From the NCBI RefSeq assembly GCF_003018115.1, contig NZ_CP027457.1: DNA of 64,000 nt. The stretch is one strand, 5' to 3'. The position numbers were made by a program, and so were the translations under genes. Origin of the DNA: Escherichia coli. Its GTDB lineage: Bacteria > Pseudomonadota > Gammaproteobacteria > Enterobacterales > Enterobacteriaceae. Numbering within the stretch: position 1 is the first letter of the stretch; each line of letters opens with the position of its first letter. The notes under the pieces are model-generated. The model was not told where the DNA came from. It made no database searches and worked only from the letters and a program-made list of their open reading frames with translations. Positions 7,476-54,093 of this stretch are shown one piece after another.

Positions 7476-8798
<1,323 letters not shown>

Positions 8799-49989: not shown

Positions 49990-51279
49990 TTACAAAGTGA
50001 AAGAGAGACGTAGCGCCAGCGCAGCCAGCGTCACAAACAGCACAGGCAGGGTCATGATAATCCCTGTACGGAAGTAATATCCCCAGCTGATAGTCATATT
50101 CTTCTGCGAAAGTACGTGCAGCCAGAGCAGTGTCGCCAGGCTACCAATCGGGGTGATTTTCGGCCCCAAATCGCAGCCAATCACGTTGGCATAAATCATC
50201 GCTTCTTTGATAACGCCAGATGCCGTGCTGCCATCAATGGACAACGCGCCAACCAGTACCGTCGGCATATTGTTCATAATAGAAGAGAGGAAGGCGGTGA
50301 GGAATCCGGTGCCGAGCGTCGCGGCCCACAGGCCGTTATCCGCCAGCACGTTGAGTACGCCAGAAAGATATTCCGTTAATCCGGCATTGCGCAGGCCATA
50401 AACCACCAGATACATGCCGAGCGAGAAGATGACAATCTGCCAGGGTGCACCGCGCAGGACTTTACCCGTATTAATCGCATGACCGCGTTTAGCGACGACA
50501 AACAAAATCAGCGCGCCCACAGCTGCAATGGCGCTCACCGGAATGCCGAGCGGTTCCAGGACGAAAAATCCCACCAACAGAAGCAGTAAAACAACCCAGC
50601 CTGTTTTGAACGTAGCAGGATCTTTAATCGCTTCTGCGGGAGATTTCAGCAGCGCCATGTCGTAGTTCTGCGGAATATCTTTGCGGAAATAGAGATGCAG
50701 CATCACCAGCGTGGCAACAATCGCGGCGATATCCACCGGCACCATCACCGAGGCATATTCGCGAAAGCCGAGGCCAAAGAAATCAGTGGAAACGATATTC
50801 ACCAGGTTGGAGACAATAAGCGGCAGGCTGGCGGTGTCGGCAATGAATCCGGCCGCCATCACGAACGCAAGCGTCGTGCCTTTACTGAATCCTAAGGCCA
50901 GCAGCATGGCGATGACAATCGGCGTCAAAATAAGCGCCGCGCCATCATTGGCAAACAGGGCGGCAACGGCGGCACCGAGCAGGACAATCCAGGTAAACAG
51001 CAAGCGACCGCGTCCATTGCCCCAGCGTGAAACGTGCAGCGCCGCCCATTCAAAAAAGCCGGACTCATCCAGCAGCAGGCTGATGATAATGACGGCAATA
51101 AACGCAGCCGTCGCGTTCCAGACGATATTCCACACCACCGGAATATCGCCCGGATGTACTACGCCCGTAACTAACGCCAGTACCGCGCCGAGCGTTGCAC
51201 TCCAGCCGATGCCTAAACCTTTCGGCTGCCAGATAACCAATACAATGGTCAGGACAAAGATAGCGCCTGCCAGTAACAT
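49990..51279 (-). CDS. arsB: Arsenite/antimonite efflux pump ArsB
   Basis: ORF 49990..51300; start likely [11 protein letters not shown] giving 429 aa; polytopic membrane protein. Confidence 0.93.
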
Positions 51280-51333
51280 AATGCCTCCCGGATAAAACAC
51301 ATGTGAAAATCCATATGTGTTTAGCTAAATTTT

Positions 51334-51687
51334 TTAACTGCAAATGTTCTTACTGTCTGCGGAACAGTTTTGTCGGGCCAGGTTGTGGACAATCGCCTGA
51401 ACCTTTTCCTGTTCACATCGCCAGGCTTCATCAATAATTTTCGCCGCCCATGCTGGAATATGCGGCGATAAGCGGTAATGAACCCACTTACCTTGCTTGC
51501 GGTCCAGCAATAGCCCGCTTTCCCGAAGTAACGCCAGGTGGCGGGATATCTTGGGCTGCGACTGATCGAGGGCAGTGCAGAGATCGCAGACGCATAACTC
51601 TCCCAGTTCGCTGAGCAGTAAAACGATGCCCAGACGGGTTTCATCAGCAAGAATTTTGAACAATTGGATGGGTAACAGAAATGACAT
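51334..51687 (-). CDS. arsR: Arsenite-responsive repressor ArsR
   Basis: 117-aa ORF with metalloid-binding ELCVCDLC motif and wHTH. Confidence 0.94.
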   Translation of the reverse strand: MSFLLPIQLFKILADETRLGIVLLLSELGELCVCDLCTALDQSQPKISRHLALLRESGLLLDRKQGKWVHYRLSPHIPAWAAKIIDEAWRCEQEKVQAIVHNLARQNCSADSKNICS

Positions 51688-51838
51688 ATTGCGCTCCTGA
51701 TTGTTGCAGGTAGTGTCTCTCTTCGAAGCGGATAAGTCAAAAACATATATGACTTAACGAATATGTAAGTGTAGAGAAAGGTATAGGTGTGAATTTTGAG
51801 TTGGGTATTCATTTGAAAGGAGGTCTGGATCAGGACGT

Positions 51839-51925
51839 AAAAAAACCGACTTTGCGTCGGTTTTTACTCTTCAGCCTGAGTTGGTGGCTCTGGCCGGAGT
51901 GAGAATGCCCACATCTAACGGTTCA
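51839..51925 (-). ncRNA. agrB: AgrB-like small RNA (antitoxin sRNA of the dinQ type I TA locus), approximate
   Basis: First copy of a roughly 235-bp tandem repeat; minus-strand hairpin (aaccgacgcaaagtcggtt) plus 7-U terminator; position next to arsR as recalled for K-12. Boundaries approximate. Confidence 0.5.
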
Positions 51926-52070
51926 ATACTATTAGCCAGTGGCTAACATTGCAAGCGTTAGCGATTTCTTCAGCTGGAGAAGGGACAGTTTGCTATACAT
52001 GTTGGTGAAAGAGGATTTATATACGTTCATCGGGTCGCTGCCGTACCAAGCCTTGTCCGAATCCGGACGT

Positions 52071-52158
52071 AAAAAAACCGACTTCGCGTCGGTTTTTTTA
52101 CTCTTCAGCCCAGAGTTGGTGGCTCTGGCTGGAGTGAGATAGCCATCATCTAACGCAT
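52071..52158 (-). ncRNA. agrA: AgrA-like small RNA, second repeat copy, approximate
   Basis: Second tandem copy with the same hairpin plus U-run terminator on the minus strand; divergent from the LexA-box promoter. Boundaries approximate. Confidence 0.5.
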
Positions 52159-52218
52159 CAATGCTAATACCATACTGAAACTATTGCAAGGACGTGCTGG
52201 TTCTATAACCTGCATGTA

Positions 52219-52234
52219 CTGTATGATTATCCAG
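52219..52234 (+). promoter_or_regulatory. LexA (SOS) box, putative dinQ promoter operator
   Basis: CTGTatgattatCCAG fits CTGT-N8-ACAG with one mismatch; lies in the agrA/dinQ divergent region, with a tataac -10-like hexamer just upstream. Confidence 0.55.
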
Positions 52235-52311
52235 TTAGCTCTGAGGCATTTTCACTCTGGCAATGCGCTTGACATCCTCCACGCCCTAAAGGACGTGGAT
52301 TCCTGCTACGT

Positions 52312-53532
52312 TCAGGCTGTCGCCTGAATCATTTCGGTGGGTTCCTGCTTCAACGGGCGGCCTGACTGCACCATCCCTCCACAGGCAAGAACGGCGTGCC
52401 CCGCCGCTAAAATGTTACGAGCGCCGTTTACATCGGCGTTCGCTGTATATCCACATACCGGGCATCTGAATTGACTTTGTGACAGGCGATTTTCTTTCGC
52501 TGTATGACCACAGCACGCGCAACGCTGGCTTGTGTACGCTGGCGGAACAGCAAGCACCTGACCGCCACGCCAGAGCTGCTTGTACTCAAGCTGGCGGCGC
52601 ATTTCATACCAGCCCTGATCCAGTATCGAACGGTTTAAACCTGATTTTGCCCGGACATTGCGCCCCGGCAGGCTGACCGTACCCGATGCTGACTTTGACA
52701 TGTTGCTGACCTTCAAATCCTCAATGACTATCATTGCGTGGTTTTTGCTGACGGTCGTTGTGACTTTGTGAAGGTAGTCCCTGCGGATATTTGCGATACA
52801 GGAATGCAGTCGCTGTATTTTGCGTTTCTGCTTCTGCCAGTTGTTGCTGAATTTGACCTTGCGGCTTAACTGTCGCTGAAGTCTCGCCAGCTTCTTCTGG
52901 TTTTTCTGAAAACTGTTTACAGGCTCAAAGGCTGTGCCATCTGACAGCGTGGCGAGTTTAGCCACGCCAGCATCCAGCCCGACCATTGATGCTGAAGGGT
53001 GAACCGGAGTTGATACTTCACTTTCTGTCTGAATACTGATGTACCACTTACCGCAGGACTGGCTGACCGTGACATTTTTCACAACACCCGTGACCTGACG
53101 GCTATTCCGGTAGCGCATCCAGCCCAGTTTCGGCAGAAAAATACGGCTGTTTTCCTGATCGAGCTTAACGCCCTGCGGGTAGCGGAATGCATCATTCTGT
53201 CCCCGCTTTTTGAATCGGGGAAAAGCAGCCCGCTTCTGGAAGAAGTTTTTGTAAGCCCGCTCAAGGTCTTTCAGTGACTGTTGCAATGGCTGTGAGGGCG
53301 AATCTTTAAGCCATTGCGTTTCAGTGGCGTTTTTCCACTCAACCAGCCAGGAAGCCATTTTCCCGTAAGGGATGTATTTATTACCGGCCTCATGATTCTC
53401 ATTCTGACGTGCCAGAGCACGATTGAAAACGAAACGACATGCGCCTGCGAAGCGCCTCATTTCACGCTCCTGTTGACCACCGGGTCTTAACTGGAATTTA
53501 AATGCCTGTAGTCGTTTCATGGGCCAAATCAT
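52312..53532 (-). CDS. tnpB: TnpB (OrfB_IS605) RuvC-like RNA-guided endonuclease / accessory transposase protein
   Basis: 406-aa ORF (start may be Met5, [13 protein letters not shown]); RuvC-like acidic residues in [23 protein letters not shown]; zinc-finger CACCGH...CPVCGY. Confidence 0.85.
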
Positions 53533-53542
53533 ACTTTGGCCT

Positions 53543-53958
53543 ATGAAAAAAGAAACCGATATCCGACGCGGAAGGCATTGTGTTTTCCTGATGCATGTTC
53601 ACCTGGTCTTCGTTACTAAATACCGACGTCAGATTTTTGACTATGACGCGACAGAAAAACTACGCACTTACTTTTCAAATGTATGTGCTGATTTTGAAGC
53701 TGAACTGGTTGAAATGGATGGCGAACCAGATCACGTCCATTTGTTAATTAACTATCCTCCCAAACTGGCGATATCCAGTCTGGTAAACAGCCTCAAAGGC
53801 GTATCGGGTAGGTTACTGCGACGAGATCGACCAGATATTGCAGCCAGGTATTACTACAAAGCGTTTTGTGGAGTCCTGGCTATTTTGCCAGTAGCTGCGG
53901 TGGTGCACCAATATCCATCATCCGCCAATACATTGAACAACAGCAAACACCTGGTTAG
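53543..53958 (+). pseudogene. tnpA: IS200/IS605 Y1 (HuH) transposase TnpA, apparently frameshifted
   Basis: N-terminal HuH motif (HVHLVF, KYRRQ) and second HxH (DHVHLLI) in the ORF frame; conserved C-terminus LWSPGYFASSCGGAPISIIRQYIEQQQ is in another frame from about 53866, ending at 53958. The 175-aa track ORF (to 54046) is a frame-fusion artefact. Confidence 0.55.
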
Positions 53959-54015
53959 GTGGAAAACCGCACCTTATATCCCCGCCCTGAATGAACGGGG
54001 TTTTACGGCGCACCG

Positions 54016-54093
54016 GATAAAGCAATCATCGTTCTTGGGGCGTTAATTGCGCTGCTGGAACTGATCCGCTTTCTGCTTCAGCTTCTGAACTGA
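54016..54093 (+). CDS. dinQ: DinQ-like type I toxin peptide ORF (codons 3-27 present; no in-frame start codon)
   Basis: Encodes DKAIIVLGALIALLELIRFLLQLLN*, matching recalled DinQ from residue 3; upstream in-frame codons (TGFYGAP) contain no ATG/GTG/TTG back to a stop at 53992; convergent with gor. Confidence 0.5.
   Translation, partial: DKAIIVLGALIALLELIRFLLQLLN

Follow-up and report, generated by a model that had tools for sequence, protein, structure and literature searches.

A one-base deletion splits the tnpA reading frame of an IS609 copy beside dinQ in Escherichia coli

The IS609 copy beside dinQ in the analysed stretch of E. coli chromosome (64,000 nucleotides, hereafter the window) carries a genuine break in the reading frame of its transposase gene tnpA, which is confirmed by alignment, protein search and profile search. 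This break is almost certainly a simple, inherited deletion of one G in a known IS609 element, whose tnpA would thereby be dead and whose tnpB and right end are intact. Judged by its sequence, the copy is a member of IS609 in which tnpA is a pseudogene, of an ordinary and already annotated kind that presents nothing novel. In annotation, tnpA should accordingly carry the label of a frameshifted pseudogene, which PGAP already gives the gene in a sister genome, and the element should be described as a non-autonomous IS609.

The local gene order in the window is arsB-arsR, two AgrB-type small RNAs, IS609, dinQ, gor, and rlmJ. Matches to a 1.8-kb query around the tnpA site are found in 5416 of the 5426 complete E. 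coli genomes; where they are annotated, the element is named IS609. The ends of the element were set by comparing 12 copies at eight insertion sites (Table 1). Over its full length (1748/1748 bp), the window copy is 97.0% identical to the annotated IS609 of K-12 MG1655 (1503161..1504908). The start of tnpA (53543, plus strand) lies 22 bp from the start of tnpB on the minus strand, and both genes begin with ATG in the window, as opposed to GTG in most other IS609 copies.

Table 1. Coordinates of the IS609 copy, its parts, and the adjoining dinQ sequences in the window
Feature	Positions	Strand	Description
LexA box of the dinQ promoter (presumed)	52217..52236	+	TACTGTATGATTATCCAGTT; flank aligns to K-12 up to 52268
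Flank adjoining the right end	52249..52268	-	GCGCATTGCCAGAGTGAAAA on the tnpB strand; predicted guide sequence
IS609 (IS200/IS605 family)	52269..54016		1748 bp; tnpB and tnpA divergent; ends from the 12-copy comparison
Right end (RE)	52269..52311	-	downstream of tnpB; hairpin at about 52278..52299; terminus ...GTCAA at 52269
tnpB (insQ)	52312..53520	-	intact gene for a predicted RNA-guided endonuclease of 402 aa; ORF uninterrupted
tnpA, N-terminal in-frame part	53543..53860	+	codons 1-106; HUH motif HVHLL; from translation and Pfam Y1_Tnp
Lesion site	53861	+	single G versus GG in other IS609 copies; 1-nt deletion; from the 12-copy alignment
tnpA, C-terminal part	53861..53958	+	-1 frame, (G)VLWSPGYFASSCGGAPISIIRQYIEQQQTPG and stop; RQYIEQQ; TAG stop at 53956-58
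Left end (LE)	53959..54016	-	hairpin at about 53980..54000; additional T at 53992, G>A at 53994
Target and presumed TAM, TTTAT	54017..54021	-	ATAAA on the plus strand; abuts LE
dinQ remnant	54017..54093	+	codons 3-27 of the DinQ toxin; from comparison with K-12 dinQ

The gene reads normally up to K106 (53858-60), where AAAGGCG has become AAAGCG. IS609 copies elsewhere have TACAAAGGCGTTTTG in the alignment and the window has TACAAAGCGTTTTG, which places the absent G at 53861. The ORF at 53519..54046 (plus strand) reads ...RLLRRDRPDIAARYYYKAFCGVLAILP..., or in a fuller stretch ...ARYYYKAFCGVLAILP..., and a separate ORF of 30 codons, set one base back at 53866..53958, encodes (L/M)WSPGYFASSCGGAPISIIRQYIEQQQTPG followed by a stop. 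With the G re-inserted, translation continues as ...ARYYYKGVLWSPGYFASSCGGAPISIIRQYIEQQQTPG up to the stop and yields a canonical TnpA of 138 residues. When this repaired protein is compared with the window by tblastn, residues 1-136 match at 53543-53932 in frame 2 with 81% identity overall, and residues 106-138 match at 53857-53955 in frame 1 with 94% identity. The out-of-frame stretch is not a chance pattern, since it shares 94% identity with the C-terminus that the family conserves. The Pfam profile Y1_Tnp (PF01797) is matched by the actual ORF over positions 1-93 of 121, a match that stops at residue 106, and by the repaired protein over positions 1-121 of 121.

A preliminary description had regarded tnpA as frameshifted, with its C-terminus in the -1 frame from about 53866 and a stop at 53958; the former is borne out by the break at residue 106 in both tblastn and Pfam, and the latter agrees with the ORF list and tblastn. 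It had also counted two nucleotides too many at the junction, which has to be corrected to a deletion of one nucleotide on the basis of the alignment with IS609 copies, where the junction is ...ARYYYKGVLWSPGYF.... Removing two nucleotides would create ARYYQSVLW (...ARYYQSVLWSPGYF...), which occurs in none of the 12 homologues; the IS609 copies and the aligned homologues instead point to one absent G, the addition of which gives YYYKGVLW.

The repaired TnpA matches homologues across Enterobacterales from end to end, and those of Photorhabdus, Proteus, Salmonella, Klebsiella, Yersinia, and further genera share its length of 138 aa and its C-terminus. All 12 aligned homologues carry this C-terminus in a single frame (YYYK[GN][VA]LW[ST]P[SG]YFA.SCGGAPISIIRQYIEQQ). 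Homologues ending in ...YYYKAFCGVLAI... had been named as evidence against a frameshift, and this C-terminus is present in 0 of the 12. In the TnpA structures of IS608 and ISDra2, the C-terminal helix (...QYIE.Q) is the counterpart of the out-of-frame part: RQYIEQQ, after the lesion, is paired with ...KQYIENQ of IS608, and HVHLL precedes the lesion. This helix bears the catalytic tyrosine (Y127 in IS608). In the window, a Y1 HUH transposase with its catalytic tyrosine is not encoded by a single ORF, as the HUH motif is present and the tyrosine helix is out of frame.

Apart from the lesion, tnpA still begins with ATG and ends with the canonical TAG. Compared with other copies, the G-restored gene has a dN/dS of 0.14-0.28 at an unusually high dS of 0.07-0.10, and the dN/dS values point to purifying selection until recently. 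The window tnpA was thus a well-kept gene until the frameshift, which is recent, and it belongs to an IS609 variant that has diverged somewhat.

The distribution of the allele was determined with a 70-bp query centred on the lesion in 5426 complete E. coli genomes. The query region is found at 7742 places in 4298 genomes, and only five of the 5426 genomes contain the exact deletion allele (F9792, F8111-1SC3, F6326-C1, 2014EL-1345-2, and LR882990), in every case at the dinQ locus. Another 35 of the places listed span 71 bp, which is consistent with the extra G. The gene is labelled “frameshifted” by PGAP in F9792, the one genome checked, and the lineage with the deletion allele includes strains of serotype O169:H41.

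These counts bear on two other ways of explaining the missing G. One of them, already put forward in the preliminary description, is that the G was lost in sequencing or assembly and that tnpA is really intact. The lesion indeed falls into a short run (AAAGG) in which single-base indel errors can arise, and judging by accessions that look consecutive and by names in the CDC style, four of the five genomes with the allele may belong to one project. Such an error is nevertheless very unlikely, as five further complete assemblies have the identical allele at this locus, one of which, LR882990, lies outside this accession series. Moreover, the F9792 copy at ydcL-ydcO keeps AAAGGCG, which speaks against a systematic error at the motif, and the window element differs from the F9792 copy at the dinQ site by one other base only, next to an identical gor flank. 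According to the other explanation, ribosomal or transcriptional slippage produces full-length TnpA at a low level, as in IS1 and IS3. The frames overlap from 53809, where the C-terminal frame has its preceding stop, to the lesion, and a -1 slip within the overlap would give the full-length protein. However, no slippery heptamer of the type X_XXY_YYZ is present within 53809-53866, and the conserved frame change at such a heptamer that characterizes programmed -1 genes of the IS1/IS3 type is found neither in this interval nor in the aligned relatives. All other IS609 copies examined and the aligned homologues of other genera are in one frame, and the allele is confined to one lineage, which makes programmed frameshifting very unlikely. 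To our knowledge, recoding has not been described for tnpA genes of the IS200/IS605 family. Both the error and the recoding are disfavoured because the allele is rare and restricted to one locus, and the other sampled places have the extra G.

It is also conceivable that the truncated product, in which the HUH domain is joined to an unrelated tail, has been retained to serve a new function, for example, as a hairpin-binding regulator or an inhibitor of transposition. Its first 106 residues including the HUH motif are unimpaired and no stop interrupts the ORF before 54046, but the allele is rare and private, the new tail has no Pfam match, and other copies were killed by unrelated nonsense and frameshift mutations (codons 15, 25, 57, 71, and 91) in a manner that resembles neutral decay more than selection of a single truncated form. 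A new role of this kind is therefore highly improbable, and the inherited loss of one G is the preferred reading.

According to the preferred reading, the recent deletion (GG to G at 53861) would have inactivated the Y1 (HUH) transposase gene of the element. The TnpA product would keep the HUH metal-binding motif and lose the C-terminal helix with the catalytic tyrosine; because this helix is out of frame, the product is probably catalytically dead and would be unable to cleave the single-stranded ends of the transposon and join them again. The window IS609 would then neither excise nor insert alone and could be mobilised only by an IS609-type TnpA from another copy, provided that its weakened left end still works. 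The view of the element as non-autonomous with an intact TnpB, which had been expressed beforehand, is supported by the loss of the tyrosine helix and by the uninterrupted tnpB with its motifs. By analogy with related elements, the copy can probably still make a TnpB-guide RNA nuclease that recognises TTTAT followed by the flank sequence. In the work of Meers et al. (doi 10.1101/2023.03.14.532601), a Y125A mutant of the transposase serves as the dead control.

Subterminal imperfect hairpins are present at both ends of the element, and terminal inverted repeats are absent. The RE hairpin has a DNA folding energy of -10.8 kcal/mol (z = -2.5), and RE probably forms the 3′ portion of the scaffold of the guide RNA (omega RNA). 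At LE, a hairpin is likewise formed but weakened: with -9.3 kcal/mol in the window versus -14.2 kcal/mol in the ST2747 copy (L002), it is about 5 kcal/mol weaker because of the variants at 53992 and 53994. These two variants are common only to the copy of strain GF4-3 at the same dinQ locus. Their sharing suggests a single ancestral insertion, and they are possibly a second, cis-acting defect. At seven of the eight independent insertion sites LE is abutted by ATAAA, and at the remaining one by ATAAG; no flank repeat is found at the other end, which indicates that the element inserts 3′ of a specific short target and does not duplicate it.

The product of tnpB has the Pfam domains HTH_OrfB_IS605 (PF12323), OrfB_IS605 (PF01385), and Cas12f1-like_TNB (PF07282) and is homologous to the ISDra2 TnpB (8exa) over residues 3-376 (E = 9e-57). 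The RuvC motifs GLD183AG, IE267DL, and AD363VNGA are present together with a CxxC...CxxC zinc finger, as would be expected from a member of this nuclease group. Among the sampled copies, tnpB has a mean dN/dS of 0.28. The pairs that include the window range from 0.28 to 1.16, and the window gene shows four private amino-acid changes besides its start codon; because of these higher values and private changes, the window tnpB may itself be drifting.

The region where a TnpB guide RNA is expected, that is, the 3′ end of tnpB and RE, is spanned on the tnpB strand (52259-52439) by Rfam matches that all remain below threshold (HgcC with 24 bits versus a cut-off of 50, RAGATH-18 with 28 versus 44.9, and sot0042 with 17.5 versus 88). 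In the model of Meers et al., TnpB and its guide RNA cleave the joint of TAM and flank. Following this published IS605 model, the flank next to RE would act as the guide, and TnpB with a guide RNA from the window copy would recognise TTTAT followed by GCGCATTGCCAGAGTG. The same RE-flank sequence stands directly after a TTTAT in K-12, and TTTAT followed by GCGCATTGCCAGAGTG is the exact sequence of the uninterrupted K-12-type site. That TnpB and the guide RNA are produced and active is likewise presumed from their similarity to characterised IS605 elements.

The closest known system is IS609 of K-12 MG1655 (the yncK pseudogene and insQ), which shares the divergent layout, the ends, the TTTAT-adjacent left end, and the combination of a dead tnpA with an intact tnpB. 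It differs by its insertion site, ydcL-ydcO instead of dinQ, and by its lesion, as it has TGA at codon 91 and CAG in place of TAG, whereas the window copy has the -1 G frameshift, an ATG start, and TAG. The TnpA of IS608 from Helicobacter pylori (2a6o, 2vjv; E = 1.5e-19) is also a Y1 HUH enzyme with its catalytic tyrosine on the C-terminal helix, and the window TnpA aligns as well with the structures of the ISDra2 and Sulfolobus Y1 transposases. IS608 and IS609 are alike in their subterminal hairpins, in the insertion 3′ of a short target without target duplication, and in a right end terminating in ...TCAA; however, tnpA and tnpB are co-oriented in IS608, and the proteins are only distantly related. 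The target of IS608 is TTAC. ISDra2 from Deinococcus radiodurans, with the target and TAM TTGAT, encodes a TnpB (8exa, 8h1j) that has the RuvC triad and zinc finger in common with the window TnpB, but its tnpA is active, in contrast to the window copy. The motif of the IS609 target, TTTAT, is the TAM of ISGst2-type IS605 elements from Geobacillus stearothermophilus (GstTnpB2), which belong to another host and are distant in sequence.

In a survey of 12 sampled IS609 copies, to which the F9792 ydcL-ydcO copy does not belong, at least seven different tnpA lesions are found, some of which differ between copies at one orthologous locus, beside tnpB genes that stay open (full length in 10 of 12) under the low mean dN/dS given above. 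The TGA at codon 91 is shared by three copies (K-12 yncK, ST2747, and PCN033) and the -1 G frameshift at 53861 by two (window and F9792). One copy each has a 1-nt deletion near codon 9, a 1-nt deletion near codon 25, and a stop at codon 57. Three further copies lack an internal lesion, but their TAG stop is changed to CAG, so that the ORF extends across the left end and continues into the flank; a canonical tnpA is found in a single copy (Z1323CEC0015, WP_024170849.1). CAG in place of the stop (equivalent to 53956..53958) is seen in L002, L003, L005-L008, and L010-L012 and leads to products of 160-224 aa. The window copy and the homologues from other genera have a stop at this point, most E. 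coli IS609 copies have CAG, and of 4397 records only 545 match the TAG-stop allele best.

F9792 has three IS609 places. When an intact tnpA that could act in trans was sought in this genome, the copy at ydcL-ydcO (L014 29487..29993) was found to carry a stop at codon 71 (LLIN*PP), and the yfeD-gltX and lsrG-tam sites were found to be empty. The tnpA inactivations in F9792 and K-12 are independent, since the stops lie at codons 71 and 91 of the same ydcL-ydcO insertion. At the dinQ locus, the GF4-3 copy (L003) has the same site and the same 166-bp loss as the window; its IS is 2.75% different and its flanks 1.4-5.1%, and its tnpA is killed by another 1-nt deletion, equivalent to 53615. The tnpA lesions of the window and GF4-3 thus appear to have arisen independently after a shared insertion, or the copies have been reshaped by gene conversion.

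As far as the sampled sequences indicate, a dead tnpA beside an intact tnpB is very usual for IS609, including yncK/insQ of K-12. Only about a quarter of tnpB genes lie near a tnpA according to Meers et al., who also state that many elements rely on a transposase in trans and that autonomous ones may degrade readily. A literature search on IS609 and TnpB found no work specific to IS609. The window copy has little wider importance and is one further example of tnpB genes that greatly outnumber working tnpA genes. We regard it as possible, though rather doubtful, that the data hold something more, namely repeated independent decay of tnpA across E. coli and, separately, an unusual IS200/IS605 rearrangement (tandem insertion and recombination, or an adjacent deletion by TnpA) behind the 166-bp replacement that would silence the SOS-induced DinQ. 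The repeated decay, if true, would mean that E. coli retains a TnpB-guide RNA module that has lost its transposase, because of some benefit or by self-maintenance.

At the dinQ site, IS609 stands in place of exactly 166 bp of the K-12 sequence, and each of the two ends of this segment comes after a TTTAT. The sequence of the tnpB strand is ...CTTTAT[CAATCACC...GCGTTTAT]GCGCATTGCC... in K-12 and ...CTTTAT[IS609]GCGCATTGCC... in the window. The lost segment held the GTG start of dinQ, its first two codons, the ribosome-binding site, and the 5′ leader. PGAP still calls a 22-aa dinQ in F9792, which is equivalent to 54025..54093. The presumed LexA box now lies 1.75 kb upstream of the dinQ remnant, with the IS in between. 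As the insertion removed the start and the leader, the lineage probably has no functional DinQ, and the gene is probably silenced. Rfam gives full-length matches to the AgrB antisense RNA at 51837..51918 and 52069..52153 on the minus strand (79.5 and 90.7 bits); these matches are kept beside the disrupted dinQ, and therefore antitoxin RNAs remain next to a toxin gene without a start.

An IS609 at the dinQ site is present in only 6 of the 5426 complete genomes. The 166-bp deletion without the IS does not occur among the 25 best-listed genomes, all of which retain the 166 bp (two pieces spanning 287 bp). Possible routes to the loss are insertions at both TTTAT motifs followed by recombination, an adjacent deletion made by TnpA, or an earlier slippage deletion. 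The route by two insertions and recombination would explain why the tnpA half of the element is more divergent than the tnpB half.

The private substitutions of the window IS609 amount to 1.9 per 100 bp in tnpA versus 0.4 per 100 bp in tnpB, and three of them fall into the 22 bp of the divergent promoter region between the genes (53520..53543). In its composition, the element resembles a mosaic of two variants of IS609. On the arsB/arsR side (50750..51663), the window differs from F9792 by 55 substitutions in about 900 bp, and because of this difference the window genome is considered related to but distinct from F9792. With the ars side divergent and the IS and the gor side near-identical, the pattern resembles the boundary of a recombination tract in the ars genes.
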